In this document: positions 37,501 to 64,000 of the stretch, piece by piece | How the letters are laid out: each line of letters begins with the position of its first letter | Position numbering within the stretch: position 1 is the stretch's first letter | Assembly: GCA_023251805.1 (NCBI GenBank) | Contig: JAHEYB010000002.1 | Coordinates: 35,038 to 99,037 of the forward strand | Direction of reading: 5' to 3' | Source of the DNA: Bacteroidota bacterium | GTDB lineage: Bacteria > Bacteroidota > Bacteroidia > 2-12-FULL-35-15 | DNA length: 64,000 bases | Program-made: the position numbers and the translations under genes | The notes under the pieces: model-generated | The model's database searches: none | Told to the model about the DNA's origin: nothing | Seen by the model: only the letters and a program-made list of their open reading frames with translations

Positions 37501-40500
37501 TATGTTGCGCCTGCTACTGTTGGTGTTGCCAAAGTGATAGTTGCGCCTACACAATAAGGGCCTGTGTTTGTTGCTGTTGGTGTTGCTGGTAATGCATTTA
37601 CCACAACCGTGGTTGTTCCTGCTGCACTTGTACAACCACCTACTGTTATGGTTACACTATAAGTTCCGGCCATTGCGGTTGTTGCACTTGCAATGGTTGG
37701 ATTTTGTAAGGCTGATGAATATGCGCTTGGACCCGTCCATGCATACGTTGCGCCTGCTACTGTTGGAGTGGATAATGCAATTGTTCCACCTACACAATAA
37801 GGGCCTGTATTTGTTGCTGTTGGTGTTGCAGGCGGGGAATTTACTACTACTGTTGTTGTGCCTACTAAACTTGTACAACCGCCTACTGTTATTGTAACAC
37901 TATATGTTCCGGCCATTGCCACGGTTGCTCCCGGGCGAGTTGGATTTTGTAAGGCTGAAGCAAAGGCACTTGGGCCTGTCCATGAATACGTTGCCCCCGC
38001 TACTGTTGGAGTTGCCAAACTGATAGTTGCGCCTACGCAATAAGGGCCTGTGTTTGTTGCTGTTGGAGTGGCTGGTAAGGCATTTACCACCACTGTGGTT
38101 GTACCTACTAAACTTGTGCAACCGCCTACAGTTATTGTAACACTATAGGTTCCTGCCATTGCAACTGTTGCTCCGGGACGAGTTGGATTTTGCAAAGCTG
38201 ATGCAAAAGCGCTTGGGCCTGTCCATGCATACGTTGCACCCGCTACTGTTGGCGTTGCCAAAGTGATAGTTGCGCCTACACAATAAGGACCTGTGTTTGT
38301 TGCTGTTGGTGTAGCTGGCAATGCATTTACCACTACTGTCGTTGTTCCAGGTAAACTTGTACAACCGCCTACTGTTATGGTTACACTATACGTTCCGGCC
38401 ATTGCGGTTGTTGCACTTGCAATGGTTGGATTTTGTAAGGCTGATGAATATGCGCTTGGACCCGTCCATGCATACGTTGCGCCTGCTACTGTTGGAGTAG
38501 ATAATGCAATTGTTCCACCTACACAATAAGGACCTGTATTTGTTGCTGTTGGTGTGGCAGGCAAGGCATTTACCGTCATTGTAATTGCGTTGGAAGTAGC
38601 CGGACTGCCGGTTACTCCAGGTAAATTGGAAGTCATAACACATGTTACAATATTTCCATTTGCCAACGTGGTGGTTGTGTATATTGGTGATGTTGCACCG
38701 CCTACAGGCACTCCATTAATATACCATTGGTATGTTGGTGCTGAACCACCATTGGTTGGTGTTGCTGTAAACGTAGCAGATGCTCCAGCGCACATTGGAT
38801 TTGTTCCAGCTGTTTGTGCAATTACTACACTTGCAACCGGAGCTCCTGTTCCAGTGATATTAATATTATCTAAATAAAGCATTTGTCCCCAGCCCGATTT
38901 GTTTTGGAATTTCACCATCACATTTGCTTGTCCAGCATAAGGAGTCATACTCACATTTTCCGTTCTCCATTGCGCTGCAGTGGGAACAAAAACGGTTGAA
39001 TTATTATCAGGTGCGGTTGCTAATACTGTGCTTCCTTTTGCATAAACTCTAGCCCAAGTAGCGCCACAATTTGTAGAAACAAAAACAATTAATGAATCAA
39101 AATAAGTTGCATCATATCTACAATAAGCAACATCAAAAGTCATATTAGCAGTTGACACTCCCGTGAAATTATATTTCGGAGTTATCATTTCATCAAGGTA
39201 CCCTGCTGTAGAAGTGGCAGGTGTTAAGTTATCCATTGATGCAGATTGAGTACTTGCTCCAAACCCCCCACAGGCAGTTGATTGCGTCCAAGCAAAATCC
39301 GCATCTGGATTTATTAGTTGCCAGCCCGGTGGAATAAATGTTGCCTGAAAGCCTTCTACTAAAGGTAAAGCAATAGGTGAAGAAACAGTAATGTATCCCA
39401 CTTTTGTTTCTCCGTCACTTCCGTTTATATTGGTTGCTGTTAACACAACTTGATACGTTCCGGCTGTATTATAACAAATGTTTGTAGGATTTTGTAACGT
39501 TGATGTTGCAGGTGTTCCACCTGTAAATGTCCAGCTCCAAGATGTTGGAGAGCCTGAAGAAATATCTGTAAAATTAATACAATCACCTACACAAATATTA
39601 GTTCTGTTAGCTGTGAAGTCGGCCACAGGAGGCGAAGTGCCAGGTGAAGCTAAATCTGATTGCCAAATACTACGACCGAATGTTGCTGCTCTTAATTTAG
39701 AAGCAGTATATTGAATTTCTAATTCTCTAACTGAAACATTTGGTAAACCTGTGTTGTAAGCAGCCCAAGAACCCGAAGTATTATCACGATAATAAACACC
39801 TACATCTGTTCCAACATAAAGCGGATCATTAACAGAGCTTCCTTGGTAGACAATACAATTGGCAGGAAGATTTGGTAAGCCTGTAGAATAATTACTCCAC
39901 GTTACACCAGCATCAGCAGAATACCAAACTTTGTTTGCAGCTGAGTATCCTGAAAAAGTAACCCAAACTCTATTTGCGTTTAGTGGGTCAATAGCAATAT
40001 AAGAAATAGATGCGGATGCTGTAGGAAGTCCAGCTGTTCTATCAACAAAAGCTGCGCCTGTAGTACACGCATAAAACCTGTTTATTTTAGCTGCATAAAT
40101 GTAGTTGATGTTAGAAGCTGCATTAGCAATTGCAATTAGACTTCCGGTTCCACCGGAAATGGTTCCCACTTGAGCCCACGTTGCGCCACTATTTGTACTT
40201 TTAAACACTTGAGATTTTCCTACAAATAAAGTTGCTGCATTGGTTGGAGCCTCGCAATAAGGAGTTACCCAATCACCGTCTTCGTTCACTGTTCCTGCTG
40301 CACCTCCACTGCTAACTATTGTAGTTGTATAGTTTCCGGCTGTGGTAGTTTTTCTGATATCGCCATAGTATAATTCACCGTATTGTATGTTGGCATTGGA
40401 CCAATCTATCAAACACTCCATACCATCACCACCTAAAGGTCTTGTCCAAGCTGCTGTTCCCGTCCATCTTGCGGTTCCATTGTCTTGCCAACCAGTATTT

Positions 40501-42083
40501 AATAAATTTGCATTTGTGGTAGACAGTCCAATTCGGTATGCTTGGGAAATTTGTAGTCCGTTGCTCAGATCCGTCCATGCAGTTCCACTTGTGGTGGTTC
40601 TAAAAAATCCTCCATCGCAACCGGCAAAAATGGTTGTTCCGCTACCCGGTAAAAATTCAATTGCGTGAATATCGGCATGGACGTATGGAGCACCTGAACC
40701 TGTCCATTCAGCATTTAAAGTCCAACTGGTTCCACCATTTGTAGAGCGCCAAATATTAACTCCACCAACCATTACCTGGTCGGCAACTAAAGGAGAAACC
40801 GCAAGCGCTAAGTCGTACCATCCTTGTCCACCAGCAGTTGCGCCAGTTGCAGAATAACCTAAAATATTTGGAGTAGTAGAACGAGTTGTAAAAGTGGCAC
40901 CATTATCTGTTGAACGATATAACCCTTGGTATCCGTAGGCTGTATTTGCTGCTAATACATAAACATAAGCTGAGTTTGCAGCAGTAACAGCAACCGATAA
41001 ACGAGAAACAGATGCAGCAGCAGGCAAGCCCGTAGATGTGGTTGCAAAAGTGGTTCCGCCATTTGTTGATTTGTAAAACAATGTGGTAGAAGTAGCATAA
41101 ACTGTTGTGGTATCTGTTGGTCGAAATTCAATGTCTTTGATGTTAGCAACAGCCGTTGCGATTTGTGTCCAAGCCGCTCCAGCATTACGTGAGCGATACA
41201 CGCCATTGCTTGTTGCTGCAAAAATAGTGTTTGGATTTTGAGGGTTAATTAATAATCGGCTAATGGTTCTTCCTTGTGTTACCAGCCACGATAAGCCTGT
41301 TGGCAACCAGGTGGTTCCCCCATCAGTAGTTTTTAATACTCCGATTGAATACGTATCTTGGGCTTCGCCATCACCGGTAGCCAAATACTGAATCAATGGA
41401 TTTGTAGGGTGTATAGCAATATCGGTTGTTCCAATAACGGCCAAGGCATCTGTTCCTGTTGTCCAAGTAACGCCACTATTCGTAGATTTCCACAATCCAC
41501 CGCCTGGGGAGCCACAATAATAGGTAGTAGAAACAAGTGGGTCGAAGCGGATAAAATTTACACGGCCAGCACCGCCACCACCCGAAGGGATAGAGGTTGT
41601 GGGACCAATTAAAGTCCAGTTTGCTGCCATCACGGTGGGTGTTCCCGGACCAGCAGCTCTGGTTCCACTAGCAGCACCTGAATAAAAATTATCAAGATAT
41701 TCGTTCCAGGCGTTAATCATTACAGAACGGTCTCCTGAGGGATATAAACGAGGAGTCATATAGCTTTCCCAACGCTTATAAATCTCCCACCCGCCTGCTA
41801 ATTCTTCTTCTTCTTTTTCGCCAGGCAATAAAGTTGAACCACCTTTAACCGGAAGCAATGGCGTTTTTAGTTTCGCCATTTTTTTCTCCATTTCCTTCCG
41901 CTCACGGGCTTCTTCTTTCCTGTGTTTCTTTTCTGTGTTCTTATAGTAGTCGTTAAACGACTTTTGAACATCATAAAAGTTTACTGTGGGATCTTGCATT
42001 TTTTCAACCCATGTTTGGGAATGGGCTGTTTTTACTGATACTGTAAGAGCAAGAGTTAAAGAAAAAAGTATTAATTTTTTCAT
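34572..42083 (-). CDS. giant (2503 aa) T9SS-secreted adhesin-like protein: N-terminal BNR/Asp-box beta-propeller region, PKD-like domain, 11 tandem 81-aa Cys-containing Ig-like repeats, 4-5 further about 75-aa Ig-like repeats, type-A T9SS CTD
   Basis: Signal peptide MKKLILFSLTLALTVSVKTAHSQ. Many xTNGGTTW/STNSGATW/TTDGGTTW motifs are present. Repeats take the form PATPTATNTGPYCVGATISLATPTVAGATYAWTGPSAFASALQNPT..AMAGTYSVTITVGGCTS. The C-terminus is ...GKGVYTISLTNEKHEVVKKIIVY. Confidence 0.85.
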   Translation of the reverse strand: MKKLILFSLTLALTVSVKTAHSQTWVEKMQDPTVNFYDVQKSFNDYYKNTEKKHRKEEARERKEMEKKMAKLKTPLLPVKGGSTLLPGEKEEEELAGGWEIYKRWESYMTPRLYPSGDRSVMINAWNEYLDNFYSGAASGTRAAGPGTPTVMAANWTLIGPTTSIPSGGGGAGRVNFIRFDPLVSTTYYCGSPGGGLWKSTNSGVTWTTGTDALAVIGTTDIAIHPTNPLIQYLATGDGEAQDTYSIGVLKTTDGGTTWLPTGLSWLVTQGRTISRLLINPQNPNTIFAATSNGVYRSRNAGAAWTQIATAVANIKDIEFRPTDTTTVYATSTTLFYKSTNGGTTFATTSTGLPAAASVSRLSVAVTAANSAYVYVLAANTAYGYQGLYRSTDNGATFTTRSTTPNILGYSATGATAGGQGWYDLALAVSPLVADQVMVGGVNIWRSTNGGTSWTLNAEWTGSGAPYVHADIHAIEFLPGSGTTIFAGCDGGFFRTTTSGTAWTDLSNGLQISQAYRIGLSTTNANLLNTGWQDNGTARWTGTAAWTRPLGGDGMECLIDWSNANIQYGELYYGDIRKTTTAGNYTTTIVSSGGAAGTVNEDGDWVTPYCEAPTNAATLFVGKSQVFKSTNSGATWAQVGTISGGTGSLIAIANAASNINYIYAAKINRFYACTTGAAFVDRTAGLPTASASISYIAIDPLNANRVWVTFSGYSAANKVWYSADAGVTWSNYSTGLPNLPANCIVYQGSSVNDPLYVGTDVGVYYRDNTSGSWAAYNTGLPNVSVRELEIQYTASKLRAATFGRSIWQSDLASPGTSPPVADFTANRTNICVGDCINFTDISSGSPTSWSWTFTGGTPATSTLQNPTNICYNTAGTYQVVLTATNINGSDGETKVGYITVSSPIALPLVEGFQATFIPPGWQLINPDADFAWTQSTACGGFGASTQSASMDNLTPATSTAGYLDEMITPKYNFTGVSTANMTFDVAYCRYDATYFDSLIVFVSTNCGATWARVYAKGSTVLATAPDNNSTVFVPTAAQWRTENVSMTPYAGQANVMVKFQNKSGWGQMLYLDNINITGTGAPVASVVIAQTAGTNPMCAGASATFTATPTNGGSAPTYQWYINGVPVGGATSPIYTTTTLANGNIVTCVMTSNLPGVTGSPATSNAITMTVNALPATPTATNTGPYCVGGTIALSTPTVAGATYAWTGPSAYSSALQNPTIASATTAMAGTYSVTITVGGCTSLPGTTTVVVNALPATPTATNTGPYCVGATITLATPTVAGATYAWTGPSAFASALQNPTRPGATVAMAGTYSVTITVGGCTSLVGTTTVVVNALPATPTATNTGPYCVGATISLATPTVAGATYSWTGPSAFASALQNPTRPGATVAMAGTYSVTITVGGCTSLVGTTTVVVNSPPATPTATNTGPYCVGGTIALSTPTVAGATYAWTGPSAYSSALQNPTIASATTAMAGTYSVTITVGGCTSAAGTTTVVVNALPATPTATNTGPYCVGATITLATPTVAGATYAWTGPSAFASALQNPTRPGATVAMAGTYSVTITVGGCTSLVGTTTVVVNALPATPTATNTGPYCVGATISLATPTVAGATYAWTGPLAYSSALQNPTIASSTLAMAGTYSVTITVGGCTSLVGTTTVVVSSPPATPTATNTGPYCVGATISLATPTVAGATYAWTGPLAYSSAVQNPTIASSTLAMAGTYSVTITVGGCTSAAGTTSVVVNALPATPTATNTGPYCVGATISLATPTVAGATYAWTGPLAYSSALQNPTIASATTAMAGTYSVTITVGGCTSLVGTTTVVVNSAPATPTVGSSTPDCVGQTISLTSNTIAGATYSWTGPSGFTSALEDPTIASATLAMAGTYSLTVTVGGCTSAVATTTVVVNALPATPVPSINGSTTPAAICAGGTITLTTPNLGGGYTYSWTGPNSYAAGVRNPPALTSVTTVMGGTYSLTVTNGGCTSLAGTVTIVVNPIPAAPTAGSNSPVCTGSTILLTSNTVAGATYSWTGPSAFASALEDPSRPGATAAMAGTYSVTVTVAGCTSPVGTTVVVVSGSVVPTNAIVASPSGAICAGTSVTFTATAGGGGTTPTYQWQVNGANVGTGGTTYTSSTLTNGQIVTCILTSSSPCASPTTATSNAITMVVNPIVVPSVSIVASPSGAICVGTSVTFTATPTNGGTTPTYQWQLNGTNVGTGGTTYTSTTLVNGDIVTCIMTSNATCPSTPTATSNAITITVNPTLVPAVSIVAAPSGAICSGTSVTFTATPTNGGTTPTYQWQVNGANVGTGGTTYTTTTLANGDVVTCILTSNATCASPLTATSTGITMVVTPTPPTPTISLSGSTLTSSSATGNQWYLNGTPIAGETNQTYVFTANGTYTVVVTIGGCSSAASAPEVITTTGMDQTSNPYLLSIYPNPNDGNFNVSFNVSVKGTYTLELTNALGQLIFKDEVNDFSGQYTKQLSVVDYGKGVYTISLTNEKHEVVKKIIVY
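35900..38570. repeat. intragenic tandem array of 11 x 243-bp repeats (8 near-identical; 3-unit, 729-bp higher-order periodicity)
   Basis: The track shows out-of-frame ORFs recurring every 243 bp (36655, 36928, 37171, 37414, 37657, 37900, 38143, 38386). Sequence starting at 37322 recurs at 38051 (offset 729) with stretches of more than 100 bp identical. Confidence 0.8.
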
Positions 42084-53652: not shown

Positions 53653-54099
53653 CTATACAAGTATAAAGATTAATATTAAAAATCGGTACACTGCCCAAGT
53701 GTACGAAATGTAGTTCGGTAAATCTAATTTTGTGACTCTTCTTTTATGATCAAAAAACATTAGTAAAACAACTATAAAAAAATATACAATATTTATAAAT
53801 GTGGGCACCAACAAAAAATGATTAAAAATAATAAGCGGGAAAAGTGTTATTGAACCTAAAGTTGAAACAACCAACATATTGTAATAGTAATCTATTTTTT
53901 GCTCTCCTGTTTTTCTAAAAACAAAAGGTAACTGAAATATAAGTTGTCCGATTACAAGAACCAATTCAAATTTCCAATCATATTTTACGTTTATCAAATG
54001 CTGAATTAACTTTGCGTATTGATTAAGTGTTGCTGCCGTAAGCCCAATAAAAAGCAACATCATTATTGTTTTATAAACGCTGTTTTTTTGATGAATCAT
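53653..54099 (-). CDS. hypothetical polytopic membrane protein (148 aa)
   Basis: 4 predicted TM helices. Its start codon abuts the stop of the upstream ORF. Confidence 0.45.
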   Translation of the reverse strand: MIHQKNSVYKTIMMLLFIGLTAATLNQYAKLIQHLINVKYDWKFELVLVIGQLIFQLPFVFRKTGEQKIDYYYNMLVVSTLGSITLFPLIIFNHFLLVPTFINIVYFFIVVLLMFFDHKRRVTKLDLPNYISYTWAVYRFLILIFILV

Positions 54100-54100
54100 T

Positions 54101-54541
54101 TTACACTCCTTTTATAACAAGGTCTTTGGGTGCAACATAACTTGTTTGTGTGCGTGGTTTAGAACCACTTCTTAAAATTAACAACAGAAACAAATTAATG
54201 AACAGCATCATTCCTAAAATTAAAATAAACGAACCTAATTTATAACTAAGCACCTCAATCATGCTTTGCGTATTGTTGATTTGCTCCTGAACATTTTGAC
54301 CTGTAACTTGATCATACTTCCAGCTTGGAACAATTTCCAATTTAATAATTGCAAAGCCTAAGCTAATTAAATAAAATCCAACTTGTAATAATTTGTTTAC
54401 TGAAACGGCCAGTTCATTTTGTCCGTGGAAAATATCCACTAAAAAAACTTTTCCGTTGGTGTGAAGGGTGCGAGCCACCCAGATGGTTAGCGCAACTGCG
54501 ATTGGCAGATAAATGCTATAAGCGAGTACAATGTAGTCCAT
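54101..54541 (-). CDS. hypothetical 4-TM membrane protein (paralogue of 54554..54919)
   Basis: Shares the architecture N-out 4 TM; LxxGxYLxxxGxxIIxLK motif. Confidence 0.45.
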   Translation of the reverse strand: MDYIVLAYSIYLPIAVALTIWVARTLHTNGKVFLVDIFHGQNELAVSVNKLLQVGFYLISLGFAIIKLEIVPSWKYDQVTGQNVQEQINNTQSMIEVLSYKLGSFILILGMMLFINLFLLLILRSGSKPRTQTSYVAPKDLVIKGV

Positions 54542-54553
54542 GATTTCTATTTT

Positions 54554-54919
54554 TTATTGGTTAGTAGTATGATGTGATTTTTTTCTTTTTCCGATGGCAA
54601 CTAATGAGATAATATTTATGCAATGCATGATTCCAAGTGTTAGTACAATTGTTCCTACTTTGAGACTAAGCACATTTGCGAACTCAATCGGACTTTCTAC
54701 TTTGTCCCATACCTTTAAAGTAATGATGGTATATCCGATATTGGTGAGGTAATATCCAGAAAGGAGAAATTTATTGACTGCGTCAGCAACAGTTTCGTTT
54801 CCGGAAAAGGTGTTGATTAGGAATGGTCTTCCATTTTTATATAAAACAGCTCCAACATATAATACTACAAAAAGTAGAATCAAAAAATAAAAGATGTATG
54901 TGAGAATGTTGTAATTCAT
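54554..54919 (-). CDS. hypothetical 4-TM membrane protein (paralogue of 54101..54541)
   Basis: Tandem paralogue: KNGRPFLINTFSGNETVADAVNKFLLSGYYLTNIGYTIITLKV aligns with NGKVFLVDIFHGQNELAVSVNKLLQVGFYLISLGFAIIKLEI. Confidence 0.45.
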   Translation of the reverse strand: MNYNILTYIFYFLILLFVVLYVGAVLYKNGRPFLINTFSGNETVADAVNKFLLSGYYLTNIGYTIITLKVWDKVESPIEFANVLSLKVGTIVLTLGIMHCINIISLVAIGKRKKSHHTTNQ

Positions 54920-54965: not shown

Positions 54966-55472
54966 TTATTTCATAAGCTTCATAAAAGAGCCAACCAACC
55001 AGTTTTCATCCGCTTTAATCATTTTTTCTAGGGTTCTATCAGCTTTTTGGGTAAAACGTTCTATTTCTTCGATGGTATCTACAAATGCTTTTACGTTTTT
55101 ATCGCGTTTGTCGCCATCCACTTGTTTCACCTCATCTAATACCTTAAAAATAGGTTCTAATTCGCGTTTTCTGCGCTCTTTGGCGATTTGCTTAAATACT
55201 TTCCATATATCTTTCTCCGCTGTAAAAAACTCTTTCCGCTCCCCTGATCTTGTTTCTTTGAAAACCAAACCCCAATCGATGAGTGTTCTCACGTTCATAT
55301 TGGTATTTCCTCTAGAAATCGTCAGTTCTTCCATAATATCTTCTGCACTTAATGCATCAGGAGAAACCAATAACAAAGCATGTACCTGTGCCATCGTACG
55401 ATTAATTCCCCAGCTGGTTCCCAATGTTCCCCAGGCGTTGATGAATTTTTCTTTGCTTTCTACTAACTTCAT
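54966..55472 (-). CDS. GbsR/MarR-type winged-helix transcriptional regulator
   Basis: INAWGTLGTSWGINRTMAQVHALLLVSPDALSAEDIMEELTISRGNTNMNVRTLIDWGLV is the GbsR-family wHTH. Start at ATG 55472 (MKLVESKEKF); the track's 55493 is an alternative. Confidence 0.65.
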   Translation of the reverse strand: MKLVESKEKFINAWGTLGTSWGINRTMAQVHALLLVSPDALSAEDIMEELTISRGNTNMNVRTLIDWGLVFKETRSGERKEFFTAEKDIWKVFKQIAKERRKRELEPIFKVLDEVKQVDGDKRDKNVKAFVDTIEEIERFTQKADRTLEKMIKADENWLVGSFMKLMK

Positions 55473-55555
55473 TTTATTGTTATTACGATACAAATGTACA
55501 ACTATTTTCCAACTTTCAAAACTTTCTGAAACTTTATTTTAATTTTTTTATAAAA

Positions 55556-55610: not shown

Positions 55611-58600
55611 CTATCTGTTTCCTAAAAGTTGTAAATAACCCTTATTGTCAAATCCTTTTCCGTTTATCGATTCTGCTTTTACAATATAGAAGTAGGTTCC
55701 ATCATTTGAATCGCCTCCATCCCAGCTCTTAGTAATATCGTCTGACTCAAACACTTTTTCTCCCCAACGATTGTAAATTGAAATGGAGAATGTTTTTATT
55801 CCGTTAGCTGAAATTACAAAGAAATCGTTTACTCCGTCTCCGTTTGGAGTAAACACGTTTGGAATATCTAAATCACAATCTAATAAAACATCTACCACAA
55901 CAGTATCAATTGTCATAAATCCACAAGCATCTACCACTTGCACTTGATAAATGTTTGTTGCGGGAACAGATGGTGTAACTTGAGCAGAAGAAGAATTTGC
56001 ATTTTGAATAGAATCTCCTGCATAGCCCGAAATGATTGTCCATGTATATGTATTGCTTCCAAAACCACCGGTACTTGATGATGCCAAACTAAATGGTGAA
56101 CCAACACAAACCTCTTGGTTGACTCCGGCACTCGCGTTCAGCGGTCCTACAACTGGTACAAATACTGTCACGCTATCAACGCCTGCACCAGCTGCACATT
56201 GACTAGTTCCTGAAACAGTATACGTTGTTGTAACAAACGGACTAGCAATCGGGTTTGCGATTAATGGATTTGATAATGTTCCTCCAGGAGACCAAACAAA
56301 TTGTGTTGCTCCTGTTGCATTCAAGTTTGTTGGTGTGCCAGGACAAATAGTCACATCGGTTCCGGCATCTACGGAAAGCGTTGTAACGTTTGCTAGAACA
56401 TCCACATATGCTGTATCAAAACATCCGCTGGTTGTGTCGGTAACAATAACATAATAGGATGTTGTTCCATTAGGAGGTGTTGCTCCTGTAGTTTGAGTTG
56501 TAGGACTAAATACTCCTCCGGTGCCCGGTGCCCAAACATAACTATATACACTTGAATCGGGAGCTGCTCCACAATAGTGAAATTGAACATTTGGTCGGTT
56601 GCTGATGGCAGTAGCAAATCCTAAATCGGGGCACATTGGTGATGAGTCACTCAAATTATACAAACACGATACAAATGGTGTGGTAGTATATTGCGATGAA
56701 CAGCTTTGTGTATAATTTGGATATGGTGGTCCTTCATTGAAACAAATTTCAACAATTAAATTTGAAATTCCATCCCACTCGTAAGCAACATCAAAAGGGT
56801 GTGCGTTCCAACCAACTGCTACCGTATAATTTTTAGGTGTGTACACATTCGACAATCCTGTTACCCAAGTTGACAATGCTGTTAAACTTGTACAACCCAT
56901 ATTGATAGTGTATTGATGGTACAAAGAAATGCCATTAATAGCCATAACATTAAAATCAATCTGATCAATTTTTCCTCCGGTAATTCCAACTGCATTTAAT
57001 TCAGATGCTCTGAATAACATTTGGTGTTTTCCGGAAGTATACCAGTTTGCATATGGCGCAGGCCATGTTGTTGCTGTGTTTGTTGCTGTTCCTGTTCCCA
57101 CTTGTGCTACTAATGCAGCAGAACATCCAACAGGATTTGTTCCGCAAACAGAAGGAACACTCGCTCCGAAAGTAACACCAAGGTTAACAGTATCGCCTAC
57201 ACAAATAACAGAATCTGAAACATAAGAAACCGGATTTGGCGGATAGCTTGCATTTATAGTAATTGTAGCCGTATCCGTTTTTATACAACCAAGCGGACTA
57301 GTAATTTGAACATAATAAGTATATGTTCCAGGGCTTGTAATTGTTGCTGTCGGATTTGAAATGGATGGATTATCTAAATAAGTTGATGGCGACCAAACGT
57401 AAGTATAAATACCGCTTGGTGATGATGTAGCATCAAACTGAATCGGCTGCAACAAGCAAGATGTAGAAGCACTTTGTACAGTTGTTAAAGTAAAATCAGC
57501 AACAATGGTAACTGTTACTGTATCTCTGTTTACACAGGTTCCACTTAAATCACTTACCACTTCGTATACTGTTGTAGAAACTGGTGAAGCCACGGGATTG
57601 TCGCAAGGGTTACAAGAAAAATTTGTTCCAATCACCATTGGCGGTCCGCTTAAAACACTCCAAGTAAACACGTTTCCGCCTGTTCCCGCAAGAGTTGCAG
57701 TTTGAGTTCCACAAATAATTTGATCAGGACCACCAAGTGTTCTTGGGTTTACATTTACGTCATAAACAAATGTTTGTTGTCCCATAACCGGACAAGCGCC
57801 ATCGTTAACAGTAACAGAAAAATTTGTGTTGGTTCCAGCACTTCCTCCCGGGGCTGTCCAGCTGATAGTGGCAACCAAAGGGTTTGTTCCTGTGAATGTT
57901 ATTGTTGCTCCGGGTAATACTGCTAAAATATTTGTGACAATTGATAATGAATCGCCCGCATCTGAATCGGTGTAGGTGGCTGTAAATGTAAAGTTCGCTC
58001 CTTCGCACATTTCAATCTGATAAGGTCCCGCCATTACAGCCGTACCTGTCAGACCTGTGATTGCCCCTGCTGTTGGAGCGGGGTCGGGAACTTGATTGGC
58101 ACATGTTTGTACAATAAATTGAATGTCGCGCATCACCGTACCGATAAGATTTCCGGAGGCATCGTATTCCTGGACCAGAACAACTACCACAAAATTTCCT
58201 AGCGTCATAGGAGTAAAAGTTAATTGTCCGGTTAGTGGGTCAATCACAATTCCCGGAATTGGGGCTGTTGCTGAATAACCAGCGGTATATGTTAGCATTG
58301 TTGCTCCGGCACCCATTGCGTTTATCAAAGAAAAATAAAGCGAGTCTCCATCTGCTTCTATTACACCATAATTGTAGTTTACTAATTGTCCTTGACACAC
58401 ATATGGAATTGGCTGAGAAGTAAAATAGGGAGAGTTATTACAAGAATCGGTTACACTATTTAATGTTGCTTCTATGTAGGATGATTGACTAGAAGGAGCG
58501 GTAAGATTGATGATGGCCCCATTTCTGCAACACACGTTCCAGCTCATATTCCATGTATCGCAAGGAGGCGCAAGAGTAACAACTCCCGTAAAATTAAATA

Positions 58601-58922
58601 CCCACATTCCCGGCAATGTACCGCCACTACAAGTACTGTTTCCAATTTGTGCAGGACACAATTGAGAGATTTCTGTTCCACCAGGATTAGTAACGTTAAC
58701 CGATGCTGTAACACTTCCACCGCAAGTGCTTGTGCATGTAATAGTTTGTGTAACACCCGGGTCAAAACCAAGACAGTCAACAAATAAATTTAAGTTTAGC
58801 TGGTATTGATTTCCTCCTAAGCAAGTATAGCTTAAGTCGCCTCCTGCAATGTGAGAAGCTTTTGCAGAATTTGTAAAAAAGATTCCAAGCGAGAGTAGAA
58901 AAAGAAGTGTAATTTTTTTCAT
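55611..58922 (-). CDS. large (1103 aa) T9SS cargo protein with gliding-motility-associated (type-B) C-terminal domain; probable adhesin
   Basis: Signal peptide MKKITLLFLLSLGIFFTNSAKA, then SHIAGGDLSYTCLGGNQYQLNLNLFVDCLG (typical N-terminus of CHU-type large proteins) and Thr/Ser/Gly-rich Ig-like modules. C-terminus CDLDIPNVFTPNGDGVNDFFVI...IYNRWGEKVFES...GTYFYIV...GYLQLLGNR matches the type-B CTD. Confidence 0.8.
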   Translation of the reverse strand: MKKITLLFLLSLGIFFTNSAKASHIAGGDLSYTCLGGNQYQLNLNLFVDCLGFDPGVTQTITCTSTCGGSVTASVNVTNPGGTEISQLCPAQIGNSTCSGGTLPGMWVFNFTGVVTLAPPCDTWNMSWNVCCRNGAIINLTAPSSQSSYIEATLNSVTDSCNNSPYFTSQPIPYVCQGQLVNYNYGVIEADGDSLYFSLINAMGAGATMLTYTAGYSATAPIPGIVIDPLTGQLTFTPMTLGNFVVVVLVQEYDASGNLIGTVMRDIQFIVQTCANQVPDPAPTAGAITGLTGTAVMAGPYQIEMCEGANFTFTATYTDSDAGDSLSIVTNILAVLPGATITFTGTNPLVATISWTAPGGSAGTNTNFSVTVNDGACPVMGQQTFVYDVNVNPRTLGGPDQIICGTQTATLAGTGGNVFTWSVLSGPPMVIGTNFSCNPCDNPVASPVSTTVYEVVSDLSGTCVNRDTVTVTIVADFTLTTVQSASTSCLLQPIQFDATSSPSGIYTYVWSPSTYLDNPSISNPTATITSPGTYTYYVQITSPLGCIKTDTATITINASYPPNPVSYVSDSVICVGDTVNLGVTFGASVPSVCGTNPVGCSAALVAQVGTGTATNTATTWPAPYANWYTSGKHQMLFRASELNAVGITGGKIDQIDFNVMAINGISLYHQYTINMGCTSLTALSTWVTGLSNVYTPKNYTVAVGWNAHPFDVAYEWDGISNLIVEICFNEGPPYPNYTQSCSSQYTTTPFVSCLYNLSDSSPMCPDLGFATAISNRPNVQFHYCGAAPDSSVYSYVWAPGTGGVFSPTTQTTGATPPNGTTSYYVIVTDTTSGCFDTAYVDVLANVTTLSVDAGTDVTICPGTPTNLNATGATQFVWSPGGTLSNPLIANPIASPFVTTTYTVSGTSQCAAGAGVDSVTVFVPVVGPLNASAGVNQEVCVGSPFSLASSSTGGFGSNTYTWTIISGYAGDSIQNANSSSAQVTPSVPATNIYQVQVVDACGFMTIDTVVVDVLLDCDLDIPNVFTPNGDGVNDFFVISANGIKTFSISIYNRWGEKVFESDDITKSWDGGDSNDGTYFYIVKAESINGKGFDNKGYLQLLGNR

Positions 58923-59184: not shown

Positions 59185-60150
59185 TTATCTCGTTAATTTA
59201 ATTTTTCCTTCTTGTTTGTATTTTTTCCCATCAGCACCAACTGCAGAAATTACATATAAATAAGTTCCCTCGCTGGCTTTTTCGCCTTTCTTAGTTTTCC
59301 CATCCCATTTTCCATCAATTCCTTCGTATTCATAAACTACGTTTCCTTTTTTATCATAAATGGTTGCGCTCATATTTACAATGTTCTTGCTTTGAAAAGC
59401 AAAAATATCATTCACTCCATCACCATTTGGAGAAAATTCTCTTTGATTAGATACTATGGATGAATTTGCAAAGGCTTCAACCCTAACACTATCAATTGCT
59501 ACTTTGCCATCGGCTCCGGTAGATGTAAGTTTAATCATATAAATTCCCGGCTCATCAAAAGGGTATACAGGGTTTGGAGAGATAATTGGCTTTGAACCAT
59601 CGTTACAAGACCATTTGTCGGTTTTTCCGCTTCCAATATTTGACACACTCACAATAAATGGAACCGAGCCACTTACACAACTTGCGGAGATGTATGCAAT
59701 ACGATCGTTTGCCAATAATGCCTCAATGTCTTTTTTATCTTTTTTAATCTTTATCGTTCCATTTGTGTTTTTAGGCTCCACTTCGTTTTTTGCTACCTCA
59801 GGCTTTTCTTTTATTGCAAGTGTTTCTGGTGTTAGGAATGTTTTAATTTCATCCACACTTGGTTTTTTAGTTTCTGCAATAACTTTTGGTTTAGGCTCTG
59901 TTGTTTTAGGTTTTGCTGTTTCGGTTTTTGTCCCGTTCATTACAAACACGGTAGCAATAACTGCTGCTGCCGATGAAACAATGGATATTACAGCGCTAGA
60001 GCCCAATTTATTTAGAAGCATTTTTCCAAATAAACCTAAACCAACACCTTTCATAGCCGTTTGCACGTTTTTCCAAACACTTGGATTAACATCTGCTTCA
60101 AAATTCTCAAACGAATCTTTAAATAAATCTTCTATATTATCTTTCTTCAT
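59185..60150 (-). CDS. putative anti-sigma factor: cytoplasmic N-domain, one TM helix, extracytoplasmic region ending in a type-B T9SS (gliding-motility-associated) C-terminal domain
   Basis: Its start lies 2 bp after the stop of the ECF sigma gene. The N-terminus MKKDNIEDLFKDSFENFEADVNPSVWKNVQTAM is typical of Bacteroidota anti-sigma partners. TM helix is SSAVISIVSSAAAVIATVFVM. C-terminus REFSPNGDGVNDIFAF...IYDKKGNVVYEYEGIDGKWDGK...GTYLYVI...GKIKLTR aligns with the CTD of the 55611..58922 protein. Confidence 0.6.
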   Translation of the reverse strand: MKKDNIEDLFKDSFENFEADVNPSVWKNVQTAMKGVGLGLFGKMLLNKLGSSAVISIVSSAAAVIATVFVMNGTKTETAKPKTTEPKPKVIAETKKPSVDEIKTFLTPETLAIKEKPEVAKNEVEPKNTNGTIKIKKDKKDIEALLANDRIAYISASCVSGSVPFIVSVSNIGSGKTDKWSCNDGSKPIISPNPVYPFDEPGIYMIKLTSTGADGKVAIDSVRVEAFANSSIVSNQREFSPNGDGVNDIFAFQSKNIVNMSATIYDKKGNVVYEYEGIDGKWDGKTKKGEKASEGTYLYVISAVGADGKKYKQEGKIKLTR

Positions 60151-60152
60151 AA

Positions 60153-60683
60153 TTACTCCTTATCTATTGGAATGATCTTCTGTAAATGTGCTTTTGCCCT
60201 TGAGTATTGCGATTTGGATGTGCCTTCCGAAATGTTAAGCATTTCTCCAATCTCTTTGTGTGAATAACCCTCAATGGCATAAAGGTTAAATACTGTTTTA
60301 AATCCTACCGGCAATGTTTGAATTATCTTTAATAAATCCTTTGCCGCAAAGCTGTCGTTTATATAAGTATTGGATGGGAGCATAAACTCTACGCTATCCA
60401 ATTCGATGTTTTGTTTTAGTTTTTTGTTTTTCCGGATATTGGTAAGCGCAGTGTTTACCATAATCTTTCTAACCCAACCTTCTAAAGAACCCGTCCCTTT
60501 AAAGGACTCTATATTTTCAAATACGCTGATAAATCCGTTTTGTACTACATCTTCTGCCTCTTCTGTGCTGTCGCAATATCTGAGGCAAACACCCATCATT
60601 TTACGAGCAAATTTATCGTACAAGTTTCTCTGAGCAATTGCATTCTTATCGATGCACCCTTTTACTATTTGCTCATCAGTCAT
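60153..60683 (-). CDS. ECF-subfamily RNA polymerase sigma-70 factor
   Basis: Region 2 (FARKMMGVCLRYCDSTEEAEDVVQNGFISVFEN) and region 4 HTH (FNLYAIEGYSHKEIGEMLNISEGTSKSQYSRAKAHLQKI). Confidence 0.85.
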   Translation of the reverse strand: MTDEQIVKGCIDKNAIAQRNLYDKFARKMMGVCLRYCDSTEEAEDVVQNGFISVFENIESFKGTGSLEGWVRKIMVNTALTNIRKNKKLKQNIELDSVEFMLPSNTYINDSFAAKDLLKIIQTLPVGFKTVFNLYAIEGYSHKEIGEMLNISEGTSKSQYSRAKAHLQKIIPIDKE

Positions 60684-60799
60684 AATCGATTTCTGTTGTA
60701 TAGATGCAAAGTTGCATTATTTGGTTGCATCAGTAAAGTTTTTTTTAGTTTTTATCAACAAATCTTTATTTATCCATAAATCAATAGCACTTTTGGGGT

Positions 60800-63220
60800 A
60801 TGGCTAAGAAGTTTCAACGCAAAACAGAGGGAAAGAAGAAGAGCTTTTTTTTCGAAGAAATACTAAAAGTATTGTCTTCAAACCGCAATAAAGCACTCAA
60901 TTACAAGCAGATAGCAGCCGAATTAAAAATCACTGATTTTGGCCAAAGACAACTCATTAACGTTATTTTAGAAGAATTGAAGAAGAATGGTTCTGTAATT
61001 GAACCCGAACGAGGTAAATTCAAAATAAAACGCGCAGAACTTTTTGTTTCTGGCCGTGTAGACATGACTTCCACTGGGGCTGCATACATCATTTCTGAAG
61101 ATACCGAAGAAGACGTTATTGTTGCACCTAAAAAAACGCTTAATGCCATGCATGGTGATACTGTTAAAGTGCGTGTGTTCCCAAAAGGAAAAGGCAAACA
61201 AGAAGGTGAAATCATAGAAGTTATAGAGCGTGCAAAGACTGAATTTGTTGGCACATTGCAGGTTTCACCCAGATTTGCCTTTCTCGTACCTACCAACATT
61301 AAAATTCATGTCGACATTTACATCCCATTGGAAAAGTTGAATGGCGCTAAAGATGGGCAAAAAGCCATTGCAAAAGTTATCGAGTGGCCTAAAAATGGTG
61401 TTAATCCTATTGGTGAAATTAAAAGTGTGTTGGGTGATGTTGGTGAAAACAATACGGAAATGCATGCAATTTTGGCGGAATACGGACTTCCATACGAATT
61501 TCCAAAAGATGTAGAACGCGCTGCCGACCTCATTCCTATTAAAATTACACAAGAAGAAATCGCAAAAAGACGTGACTTCAGAAAAACCACCACATTCACC
61601 ATTGATCCGGTGGATGCAAAAGATTTCGATGATGCACTTTCCATACAAAAATTAAAGAATGGAAACTGGGAAATAGGCGTTCACATTGCCGATGTAAGCC
61701 ATTACGTGAAGCCCGATTCGATGATTGACAAAGAAGCAATTTCGCGCGCTACTTCTGTATACCTTGTAGACAGAGTTGTTCCGATGCTTCCCGAAGTTTT
61801 ATCAAACAATGTTTGTTCTCTTCGACCGAATGAAGAAAAATTGTGTTTCTCTTCTGTGTTTGAAATGACGGACGATGCAGAGGTGGTAGCAGAATGGTTT
61901 GGCAGAACAATTATTAATTCCGACAGACGCTTTACATACGAAGAAGCCCAACAGGTAATAGAAACAGAGGAAGGCGATTTTAAAGAAGAAGTTTTAACCT
62001 TAGATAGGTTAGCAAAAATATTACGCAACAATCGTTTTAAGAAAGGAAGTATTGCGTTTGAAAAAATGGAAGTGAAATTTCATTTGGATGAAGTTGGAAA
62101 TCCTACGGGAGTATTTTTTAAAGTAGCGAAAGATTCCAATCAATTGATTGAAGATTTTATGCTTCTAGCCAATAGAAAAGTCGCAGAGTTTGTTGGGAAA
62201 AAAAAGAGTGAAAGAGGAGAAAATCATAAGTCAAAAGAAAACAATAAAGAACCTCAACGGCCTTTTGTATATCGTATTCACGACAAACCGAATCCAGATA
62301 AGTTGCAAAATTTTTCGGAATTTGTGGCGAAGTTTGGTTATAAATTAAACGTGAAAAACATCAACACGGTTGCCGACTCAATGAACAACTTGTTGAAAGA
62401 AGTGAATGAGAAAAAAGAATCGGGAATGATTGAAATGCTTGCTATTCGCACCATGGCGAAGGCGGTATACACCACAAAAAATATTGGTCACTACGGATTA
62501 GGGTTTGATTATTATACACATTTTACTTCTCCTATTCGTAGATATCCTGATGTGATGGTGCACAGATTGTTGCAACATTATTTGGATGGAGGAAAAAATC
62601 CGGACATTGATAAATTGGAAGAACAGTGTAAACACTCTTCTGATATGGAGAAGCTGGCAGCAGATGCGGAGCGCTCTTCCATCAAATACAAACAAGTACA
62701 ATACTTAACGGATAAAATCGGAGAGGAGTTTGATGGTGTGATTTCGGGTGTTACGGAGTGGGGAATATTTGTAGAGATTATTGAAAATCATTGCGAAGGC
62801 ATGGTGCGTTTGCGTGAACTGCGTGACGATAATTATTATTTTGATGAAGACAATTATTGTTTGCGTGGCCGTAAATTCGGAAAAGTATTAACGCTTGGAG
62901 ATACTGTGCGTATTGAGATTAAGCGTGCCGACTTGGTAAAAAAACAATTGGATTTTGCATTGGTAGAAGTGTTTGAAGAGAAGTCAAAAGGAGAAACTCA
63001 CCCGCCTGCCGGTCGGGCAGGAAAGTCAAAAGGCGAGCAACGTTCGTTTTCAAAACGCGAACAACACAAAGCAAAAAGTAAAAATTACAAAGAGGAAATG
63101 AAGTCGGCAACGCAACGAAATGCTAATTCAAAACAAGAATCATCGCCTCCCCCTAAAAAAGAAGAGCCGAGGAAACCAACAGGGAATGCCTTTTTGGATG
63201 AATGGGGGTTTGAGGTGTAA
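60800..63220 (+). CDS. rnr: ribonuclease R (RNB-family 3'-5' exoribonuclease) with Lys-rich C-terminal tail
   Basis: N-terminal HTH/cold-shock-like region, an RNB catalytic domain (FTIDPVDAKDFDDALS; GHYGLGFDYYTHFTSPIRRYPDVMVHR), an S1 domain (GVISGVTEWGIFVEI) and a basic low-complexity tail. Confidence 0.9.
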   Translation: MAKKFQRKTEGKKKSFFFEEILKVLSSNRNKALNYKQIAAELKITDFGQRQLINVILEELKKNGSVIEPERGKFKIKRAELFVSGRVDMTSTGAAYIISEDTEEDVIVAPKKTLNAMHGDTVKVRVFPKGKGKQEGEIIEVIERAKTEFVGTLQVSPRFAFLVPTNIKIHVDIYIPLEKLNGAKDGQKAIAKVIEWPKNGVNPIGEIKSVLGDVGENNTEMHAILAEYGLPYEFPKDVERAADLIPIKITQEEIAKRRDFRKTTTFTIDPVDAKDFDDALSIQKLKNGNWEIGVHIADVSHYVKPDSMIDKEAISRATSVYLVDRVVPMLPEVLSNNVCSLRPNEEKLCFSSVFEMTDDAEVVAEWFGRTIINSDRRFTYEEAQQVIETEEGDFKEEVLTLDRLAKILRNNRFKKGSIAFEKMEVKFHLDEVGNPTGVFFKVAKDSNQLIEDFMLLANRKVAEFVGKKKSERGENHKSKENNKEPQRPFVYRIHDKPNPDKLQNFSEFVAKFGYKLNVKNINTVADSMNNLLKEVNEKKESGMIEMLAIRTMAKAVYTTKNIGHYGLGFDYYTHFTSPIRRYPDVMVHRLLQHYLDGGKNPDIDKLEEQCKHSSDMEKLAADAERSSIKYKQVQYLTDKIGEEFDGVISGVTEWGIFVEIIENHCEGMVRLRELRDDNYYFDEDNYCLRGRKFGKVLTLGDTVRIEIKRADLVKKQLDFALVEVFEEKSKGETHPPAGRAGKSKGEQRSFSKREQHKAKSKNYKEEMKSATQRNANSKQESSPPPKKEEPRKPTGNAFLDEWGFEV
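62981..63034. repeat. miniature hairpin element with flanking direct repeats, embedded in-frame in the rnr 3' region
   Basis: GAAGTCAAAAGG-AGAAACTCACCCGCCTGCCGGTCGGGCAGG-AAAGTCAAAAGG. The core is identical to the nuoB-nuoC spacer copy (32867-32928, opposite orientation). It encodes ...SKGETHPPAGRAGKSKGEQ... in the RNase R tail. Confidence 0.55.
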
Positions 63221-63295: not shown

Positions 63296-64000
63296 TTAAA
63301 TCATATTCAATCTCTTAGCTAAATCATCTTTATAAGAGCCACCGATTGGAATTAATTTTTTGTCTTCTTCCAAAATTAAATTCGGTTGTTCAATGGCAAC
63401 GATTTTGTCGATGCGAACGATGAAAGAGCGGTGCACACGAATGAAATCGGTTGTAGGCAATTTCTTTTCAATGTCTTTCATTGTGCTGTGGATAGTGTAA
63501 CGTGCACTGTTGGTGTTTATAACCACATAATCTTTTAATGCTTCCACAAAATAAATATCGCTGGTTTTTACTTTTACCAAACGAGAATTTGATTTCACGA
63601 AAATGATGTCTTTTGATTCTTTGTTTTCTACGATTGAGTATAAGAAATCCCGTTCTTTTTTTACATCTGTTTCTTTCTCGTGCTTGTATATCGCCATTTC
63701 AATAGAAGTGTGTAAATCAATTTCTTTGAAAGGTTTAATGATATATCCGTAAGGCTCCGAAACTTTTGCTTTACTTAGAGTGCTTTCATCCGCGTAAGCT
63801 GTCAAATAAATAATAGGAATATTATATTTTTCACGAATTTGTCCGGCTGCTTCAATCCCGCTCATATCGCCTTTTAGCATGATGTCCATCAATACCAAGT
63901 CTGGTTTTGTTTCTTCAGCAGTTTTAATGGCATCTTCTCCTGTTGAACACATTCCAACTACTGTGTATCCGAGCTTTTTAAGGCTATGTTGAATATCTTT
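63296..64000 (-). CDS. LytTR-family two-component response regulator (REC + LytTR DNA-binding domain); 5' end beyond window
   Basis: REC motifs (DLVLMDIMLKGDMSGIEA; IIYLTAYADE) and C-terminal LytTR (VKTSDIYFVEALKDYVVINT...FIRVHRSFIV). The reading frame stays open upstream of the track ATG through position 64000 (…KDIQHSLKKLGYTVVG-MCSTG…). Confidence 0.8.
   Translation of the reverse strand, partial: KDIQHSLKKLGYTVVGMCSTGEDAIKTAEETKPDLVLMDIMLKGDMSGIEAAGQIREKYNIPIIYLTAYADESTLSKAKVSEPYGYIIKPFKEIDLHTSIEMAIYKHEKETDVKKERDFLYSIVENKESKDIIFVKSNSRLVKVKTSDIYFVEALKDYVVINTNSARYTIHSTMKDIEKKLPTTDFIRVHRSFIVRIDKIVAIEQPNLILEEDKKLIPIGGSYKDDLAKRLNMI

Follow-up and report, generated by a model that had tools for sequence, protein, structure and literature searches.

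The closest described relatives of the system analysed here are the anti-sigma factors of the Dma family, which is represented by Dma1/Das1 and Dma2/Das2 in Bacteroides thetaiotaomicron and Reo/EcfO in B. fragilis and is confined to the Bacteroidota (PMC10927553, PMC13088901). In Dma1, an OMP_b-brl_2 protein, the N-terminal region is followed by a transmembrane (TM) helix, then by a long disordered tether and finally by an outer membrane (OM) barrel (PMC10927553, Pardue 2024), and residues 1-40 of Dma1 pull down the sigma factor Das1 (PMC10927553). Also relevant are the type-B C-terminal domains (CTDs) of type IX secretion system (T9SS) cargo, which stay uncleaved and bound to cognate PorP/SprF-like OM barrels; these barrels pull the cargo from the SprA translocon and set its destination. 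Some type-B cargo goes onto the gliding track, and an orphan shuttle serves "orphan" substrates (PMC9143113, PMC12618676). Here we describe a gene pair in a 64-kb stretch of Bacteroidota DNA (hereafter the window) in which the gene for an extracytoplasmic function (ECF) sigma factor is directly followed by the gene for a protein, the partner, that ends in a type-B CTD. We propose that the partner is a Dma-related anti-sigma factor in which a PKD domain and a type-B CTD have replaced the OM beta-barrel, and which would tether the sigma factor across the envelope; we put the probability of this reading at about 60%. We found no anti-sigma factor with a T9SS CTD in the literature searched (~8 million papers).

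The open reading frames (ORFs) are as a preliminary description of the window had given them, namely the sigma factor gene, the partner gene, with its ATG 2 bp after the TAA stop codon of the sigma factor gene, and a neighbouring gene for a 1103-aa adhesin-like protein (Table 1). That description read the partner as a single-pass anti-sigma factor with an N-terminal domain of about 45 aa and one TM helix. This layout is borne out by an AlphaFold2 (AF2) model, built from a 62-sequence alignment of the family, because a hydrophobic helix at residues 52-72, the only one in the protein, is preceded by two short helices at residues 5-13 and 23-34, all with low predicted local distance difference test (pLDDT) values. 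Across residues 41-140 pLDDT is 29-40, reaching ~59 by residue 150, and residues ~73-150 hold two small helices only, as expected of a disordered linker. Two beta-sandwiches follow, a PKD domain at residues 154-226 (pLDDT 82-92) and the CTD at residues 236-319 (pLDDT 84-95). Matches to PKD/PKD_4 in Pfam are weak for the partner itself (residues 162-218, E 8.5e-4), and precomputed matches to PF18911/PF00801 (PKD) are clear in most of its homologs.

In family alignments, including that of 62 sequences, the N-terminal 72 residues of the partner are the best-conserved region. Invariant positions lie in the first 35 residues, hereafter the N-motif (E7, F10, K11, F14, F17, E18, W26, N28 and K34), and in or near the TM helix (G50, S59, S60, T67 and N72). 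Linker columns are variable except for a short motif, E101-I102-K103 ("EIKxFL"), in which I102 and K103 are nearly invariant and which could be a protease or docking site. The wider motif, KP.V.EIK.FL, lies at window positions 59842-59859 (partner residues ~98-103), and the AF2 model has a small helix at residues 99-105. Judged from sequence and conservation, the partner has no cleavable Sec signal peptide: the hydrophobic stretch begins at residue 52, behind the conserved 35-aa motif, and such strong conservation of the N-terminal segment and of the TM helix would not be expected of a signal peptide that is discarded. By contrast, the adhesin-like protein carries a classical N-terminal signal peptide (MKKITLLFLLSLGIFFTNSAKA).

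The C-terminus of the partner passes the cutoffs of both profiles for type-B sorting domains. It matches PF13585 (CHU_C) at residues 238-317 with 67 bits (cutoff 27; E 1.7e-18), and TIGR04131 with 38.3 bits (cutoff 35). As the preliminary description had claimed, it also aligns with the CTD of the adhesin-like protein (37% identity over 81 aa, E 2e-18), the shared motifs being F[ST]PNGDGVND, WDG, GTY.Y and G.[IL].L. Eight motif residues (P241, D244, D248, W282, G284, Y297, G315 and L319) are invariant in the 62-sequence alignment.

The presumed cytoplasmic part of the partner matches none of the established anti-sigma families. Residues 1-75 have no Pfam or NCBIfam match at E<=1, and none of the classical anti-sigma domains (zf-HC2/RsrA-type anti-sigma domain, RskA, RseA_N, FecR) matched there; the region is instead homologous to the N-motif of Dma-type proteins. 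With the full-length partner as query, more than 120 clusters of homologs (315-340 aa, 46-100% identity) were obtained, all of them from uncultured Bacteroidota/Bacteroidia. We searched a profile of the N-terminal module (residues 1-76) exhaustively against 1.84 billion cluster representatives and obtained 402 matches at E<=1e-3. From these we considered 93 full-length N-motif carriers that share only 12-19% mutual identity. CHU_C is the terminal domain in 90 of the 93, about 50 have a PKD domain, and all 93 have a hydrophobic 19-mer after the N-motif (median Kyte-Doolittle value 1.93). The presence of CHU_C in nearly all of these divergent proteins indicates that the series N-motif, TM helix, linker, PKD domain (where present) and type-B CTD is a rule across the superfamily, rather than a one-off fusion.

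The link to Dma comes from P0148, the only full-length N-motif carrier without a CTD. Its N-motif is present in four tandem copies, followed by a TM helix, a long linker and a C-terminal region that ends in ...GLSYRF, and its gene also follows an ECF sigma factor gene. Pfam assigned no barrel family to the C-terminus of P0148 itself; PF13568 (OMP_b-brl_2) is present in its homologs, whose annotation reads "outer membrane beta-barrel protein". One of these homologs, P0301, is encoded behind an ECF sigma factor gene in a flavobacterial-type context. A hidden Markov model (HMM) of the N-motif made from CHU_C carriers only matches 38 of 39 OMP_b-brl_2 proteins of Dma type at E<=0.1, and 32 of them at E<=1e-4 (best E 2e-14), with the matches falling at residues 4-35; the similarity can be seen in the pair MNKNKNIDQLFKDRFKNFEASPSPQVWENIQAKL (P0301) and MKKDNIEDLFKDSFENFEADVNPSVWKNVQTAM (window). 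On this evidence the partner would belong to the Dma-type anti-sigma superfamily, the connection running through metagenomic proteins of Dma architecture. Nonetheless, the C-terminus of the partner consists of PKD and CHU_C domains and has no match to PF13568, the family of the 8-stranded OM beta-barrel. Since it has no C-terminal barrel, the partner represents a sister architecture and not a strict Dma member, even though it shares the TM helix followed by a disordered region (with a shorter linker than in Dma-type proteins).

Tandem N-motifs are also found outside P0148. Two copies are present in 16 of the 93 distant carriers, all of CHU_C type (e.g. L015 480-1499), and some beta-barrel relatives of Dma type have three to six (P0148, P0274-P0279). 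Such duplication may allow several sigma factor molecules to be bound, or may produce avidity effects.

The sigma factor is of the ECF type (group 4), having only the sigma-2 and sigma-4 domains and, at 176 aa, a length within the ~170-200 aa of that group: it matches Sigma70_r2 (PF04542, 57.6 bits) and r4_2 (PF08281, 52.5 bits) in Pfam, and TIGR02937 (sigma70-ECF) with 93.5 bits (cutoff 42.9). Its match to NF058625, the GFO_1088/PG0214 family, is below the cutoff (76 bits versus 130). We compared the window with related loci, treating as close the window itself, L001-L005, L009, L010/L011 and L012 (n=9), and as distant, CHU_C-type loci L013-L017 (n=5). An orthologous ECF sigma factor gene lies directly upstream of the partner gene, on the same strand, in 14 of these 14 loci, with a gap of 2-9 bp or an overlap of 4-8 bp; the distant loci otherwise have unrelated neighbours (asd, uvrC, lepA, p450 and others). 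A further 33 pairs of partner clusters and sigma factor clusters share an equal size of longest contig. The sigma-adjacent, CTD-bearing architecture, which the preliminary description had reported from the window, is thus conserved.

Sigma factor orthologs co-diverge with their partners. Identity to the window sigma factor is 84-96% in the close loci, where the partner is far less well kept (50-72%), and 45-55% in the distant CHU_C-type pairs. As a proxy for membership of ECF21, the group of Das-type sigma factors, we compared it with sigma factors that precede Dma-type proteins (L018, L020): they are 40-41% identical to it, versus 33% for an unrelated ECF sigma factor, and they share with it a sigma-4 signature, F.LYAIEGYSHKEI..ISEGTSKS. 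Bit scores give the same picture: orthologs in CHU_C-type loci score 153-215 bits against the window sigma factor, and a second, unrelated ECF sigma factor in L013 scores 91 bits. Taken together, homology and genomic context make the assignment of the partner as an anti-sigma factor well supported, as judged from sequence comparison.

The coupling of the partner to the T9SS is plausible, and is argued from the behaviour of other type-B proteins. Because type-B CTDs stay bound at the OM, a type-B CTD in place of a barrel would keep the logic of a C-terminus fixed at the OM while making it dependent on the T9SS. By analogy, the CTD probably docks the far end of the partner on the T9SS or on a PorP/SprF-like OM protein. 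In the mechanism that we infer, the partner would be an inner-membrane protein whose N-terminus faces the cytoplasm, where the helix-loop-helix formed by the 35-residue N-motif would sequester the sigma factor at the membrane. The disordered linker would span the periplasm, and the CTD would bring the far end of the protein to the T9SS translocon and a PorP/SprF-like shuttle, there to be bound uncleaved, such that a cytoplasmic sigma factor would be tethered to the T9SS or to the cell surface. A loss, an overload or a mechanical strain at this outer end might then cause the tether to be cut by proteolysis, with regulated intramembrane cleavage, and the freed sigma factor would act on its own promoter (GCAACC-N16-GCATCT) and on a further regulon.

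Several observations weigh against this proposal. At ~80 aa the linker is short next to the ~200 or more of Dma-type proteins, and only when stretched nearly to its full length would it reach the outer face of the OM. The positive-inside rule is weakly informative (on average 1.9 K+R before the TM helix and 2.8 after it in the close family), and the N-in topology consequently rests on domain logic and homology. A cognate PorP/SprF-like gene commonly, though not universally, adjoins that of a type-B substrate. We found none among the 10 neighbouring ORFs scanned singly, among 25 of the families matched by the other 37 ORFs of the window, or among the genes called in related loci; by analogy, the partner would be an "orphan" type-B protein of the kind described previously (PMC12618676). 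We found no published description of a T9SS substrate tethered to the inner membrane. The homology to Dma was measured on metagenomic OMP_b-brl_2 proteins of Dma architecture that were reached through P0148. The members found are all from uncultured bacteria. Lastly, a concatenated query yielded no natural, Dma3-like fusion of sigma factor and partner among its top 120 matches, which are all stand-alone sigma factor orthologs of 158-202 aa.

[quoted passage not shown] Also improbable, in our view, is a checkpoint similar to that of FlgM, in which a working T9SS would export the extracytoplasmic part of the partner once it has been cut, the stub would be degraded, and sigma factor activity would report T9SS throughput. 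All the hallmark type-B motifs are under purifying selection, the linker is short for a permanent bridge, and the conserved EIKxFL could serve cleavage as well as docking, all of which would suit such a checkpoint. Indeed, full-length Dma1 vanishes in stationary phase while C-terminal fragments of it build up (PMC10927553). Nonetheless, release of a regulator coupled to the T9SS has no known precedent, and the same data fit a tether equally well.

An alternative of similarly low probability is that the partner is a conventional single-pass anti-sigma factor whose PKD domain and co-opted CHU_C-like fold sense a ligand or stress in the periplasm, with no involvement of the T9SS and with release of the sigma factor by site-1/site-2 proteolysis. 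Immunoglobulin (Ig)-like beta-sandwiches are common as periplasmic sensor domains, the partner lacks the cleavable signal peptide that is present in every known T9SS substrate, no PorP/SprF-like gene was found adjoining the pair, and the linker is short. However, the CTD is at the extreme C-terminus and scores over the TIGR04131 cutoff, its secretion-motif residues are invariant, and the 90 very divergent CHU_C carriers hold this same domain rather than the assortment that might be expected of sensors. Moreover, the sister Dma-type architecture has its C-terminus in the OM (PMC10927553), which argues that the C-terminal module was selected for OM targeting. Far less probable still is that the partner is no regulator but a small adhesin of the cell surface, with an unusual signal anchor that is cleaved late or not at all, co-transcribed as a target of the sigma factor and using its N-motif for export or insertion: although it is annotated only as a [quoted passage not shown] and has no detected anti-sigma domain of Pfam or NCBIfam, it shares the N-motif with sigma-following Dma-type OMP_b-brl_2 proteins, an architecture whose founding member, Dma1, binds the sigma factor through its first 40 aa (PMC10927553), some members have two to six copies of the motif, which would be odd for an export signal, adjacency to the sigma factor gene with translational coupling is strict in 14 of 14 loci, and the sigma factors co-diverge with the partner.

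Table 1. Positions of the sigma factor/partner locus and its parts in the 64-kb window, with the evidence for each.
Feature	Position	Strand	Evidence or sequence
Candidate autoregulated ECF-type promoter	60702..60729	-	TGCAACC (-35-like), N15-17, (TTT)GCATCT (-10-like)
ECF (group 4) sigma factor, 176 aa	60153..60683	-	ORF list; Sigma70_r2 + r4_2, TIGR02937
Partner gene, 321 aa	59185..60150	-	ORF list
Partner residues 1-35, putative sigma-binding N-motif, two short helices	60046..60150	-	IEDLFKDSFENFEADVNPSVWKNVQTAMKG; conservation, AF2, HMM
Partner residues 52-72, single TM helix	59935..59997	-	SAVISIVSSAAAVIATVFVMN; AF2, conservation
Partner residues 73-151, K/E/P/T-rich variable disordered linker	59698..59934	-	pLDDT, column conservation
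Partner residues 152-228, PKD-type beta-sandwich	59467..59697	-	Weak PKD/PKD_4 matches, AF2
Partner residues 236-321, type-B T9SS CTD (CHU_C / TIGR04131), extreme C-terminus	59188..59445	-	PF13585, TIGR04131
RNA-like element of ~220 nt, directly 3' of the partner stop codon	58955..59179	-	Conservation, RNAalifold
Adhesin-like protein with type-B CTD, 1103 aa (context only)	55611..58922	-	ORF list; CHU_C 76.9 bits, signal peptide

All nine close loci have the sequence TGCAACCAAAT..TGCAACTTTGCRTCT, unvaried, upstream of the sigma factor gene. Its core, GCAAC(C)-N15-17-GCATCT/GTCT, is also found upstream of the sigma factor gene in L013, L014, L016 and L017, where the flanks are unrelated. In the window the motif (GCAACC-N16-GCATCT) ends ~20 nt before the sigma factor ATG, and the one other match in the 64 kb is probably due to chance. 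This conservation suggests an autoregulated ECF promoter. A direct-repeat regulator site (two copies of TGCAAC) was rejected as an alternative, the second copy not being kept in the distant loci.

The preliminary description had suggested that the regulon of the sigma factor plausibly includes the adhesin-like protein, and this is not supported. Neither strict nor relaxed patterns gave a motif of the sigma type upstream of adhesin genes in the window or in any of the loci, the only matches being intragenic and attributable to chance. An RNA-like element with a terminator hairpin lies between the partner and adhesin genes. Downstream of the pair there are one or two genes for large CHU_C proteins in the window, L001, L003 and L009-L012, but the adhesin is absent from L002, L004 and all the distant loci. 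In L002 and L004 a MarR-family gene (54966-55493 in the window) comes next in place of the adhesin; the L004 copy encodes 168 aa and stands straight after the RNA-like element. The adhesin gene, which in the window lies between that element and the MarR-family gene, shows presence/absence polymorphism.

The RNA-like element is nearly unchanged, base by base, across the window, L001-L004 and L010, which include loci without the adhesin, and is absent from L005, L009, L012 and the distant loci. It ends in a terminator hairpin (58997-58970) and a T-run; RNAalifold detects this hairpin, which a generic promoter/terminator scanner misses because of its loop limit. RNAalifold folds the element with 72 pairs, eight of which have compensatory changes, and G-U wobbles favour the strand of the genes. 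Four of four metagenomic matches to the element (L021-L024) lie ~90 nt 3' of a partner ortholog. Rfam has no family for it, the best match being a chance one to a Plasmodium small nucleolar RNA (28.6 bits versus a gathering score of 60). The element is probably the 3' untranslated region (3'UTR) of the sigma factor/partner operon, or a small RNA derived from that 3'UTR, and specific to the close lineage.

Other genes in the surroundings of the pair include a LytTR-type response regulator (63296-63952, minus strand), listed as an ORF of 218 aa in the window and 250 aa long in related loci, which sits beyond a divergent RNase R gene (60800-63220). It is found ~2.5-5 kb away, often with a large PAS histidine kinase, in L001-L003, L005 and L009-L012. 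Downstream of the MarR-family gene are adjacent genes for two paralogous small membrane proteins of 146 and 121 aa with similar N-terminal halves (54101-54541 and 54554-54919, minus strand), together with one more hydrophobic ORF (53653-54099); to none of the three was a family assigned. The window also encodes T9SS cargo of both types. One such protein, of 2503 aa, has a type-A CTD (Por_Secre_tail) with Sortilin/PKD/Ig_7 domains (34572-42083, minus strand), and the stretch around its gene has a G+C content of 0.43-0.47 versus ~0.35 for the rest of the window, which may reflect compositional bias of repeats or a foreign origin.

To our knowledge, the T9SS substrates so far described all pass through a soluble periplasmic intermediate and have a cleavable signal peptide. 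A widespread and strongly conserved family with a genuine type-B CTD on a regulator that is apparently anchored in the inner membrane would mean one of two things: the T9SS or its shuttles can handle substrates that are tethered, or can be probed by them, or else the CTD also serves as a module for docking at the OM. The Dma concept, introduced in 2024, would thereby be generalised to a modular chassis, in which a TM helix joins an N-terminal sigma-binding motif to a disordered tether and whose distal end apparently reaches the OM by at least two routes, a barrel of the beta-barrel assembly machinery (BAM) type or a T9SS tag. This offers a comparative handle on two questions about Dma, namely how a protein is assembled across two membranes and what it senses. 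The pair is also a candidate link from the T9SS or gliding to transcription outside Porphyromonas, where only PorXY-SigP/PorA is known, and a tethered substrate, if real, would directly sense type IX secretion, surface contact or gliding, through mechanical force or throughput. For T9SS specialists the surprise would be the tethered substrate; for ECF specialists, a second route to an envelope-spanning anti-sigma factor.

Among known systems, the type-B cargo/shuttle pairs SprB-SprF, Fjoh_3952-Fjoh_3951 and PG1035-PorP-PorE have the same TIGR04131/PF13585 domain with its conserved motifs (PMC9143113, PMC12618676), and in these systems the CTD stays attached to an OM barrel, as a tether requires. 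Known type-B substrates differ in having a cleavable Sec signal peptide and soluble periplasmic intermediates and in being mostly large adhesins, whereas the partner, at 321 aa, has a conserved cytoplasmic motif and a TM anchor and is linked to a sigma factor. PorA of Porphyromonas gingivalis resembles the partner as a small protein with an Ig-like domain and a CTD that signals the status of the T9SS or surface to an ECF sigma factor (PorA-PorXY-SigP; PMC7712824). However, the CTD of PorA is of type A, its signal peptide is a normal one and the protein is secreted in full; it acts indirectly, through a two-component system, is not itself an anti-sigma factor, and is found in Porphyromonas only (PMC7712824).

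FlgM and sigma-28 form the checkpoint of the flagellar type III secretion system. There the anti-sigma factor is itself a secretion substrate and sigma factor activity reports the state of the machine, as it would in a T9SS checkpoint; unlike the partner, FlgM is soluble and cytoplasmic, is exported whole, has no membrane anchor and shows no homology to the partner. FecA-FecR-FecI and RseA/sigma-E are examples of trans-envelope signalling and of regulated intramembrane proteolysis. They share with our proposal a single-pass anti-sigma factor in the inner membrane, the periplasmic part of which senses an event at the OM, and sequential proteolysis, but their OM component is a separate protein and their anti-sigma domains (FecR, RseA_N) are unrelated to the partner.

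The Dma proteins remain the nearest counterpart. Like them, the partner is encoded directly downstream of an ECF sigma factor gene and found only in Bacteroidota, and its layout runs from a short N-terminal region that would bind the sigma factor, through a single TM helix and a disordered tether, to a C-terminal module that would go to the OM. It differs in ending in a PKD domain and a type-B CTD rather than an 8-stranded BAM-type beta-barrel (PF13568), and in its shorter linker (~80-100 aa); moreover, its OM end would need the T9SS and a PorP/SprF-like protein, whereas the end of a Dma protein is itself embedded in the membrane. The preliminary description had called a CTD on a regulator anchored in the inner membrane unexpected. 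That judgement holds for the T9SS tag, which is what is new relative to Dma/Reo as a route to the OM, but not for an anti-sigma factor that reaches the OM, for which Dma/Reo had already set the precedent.

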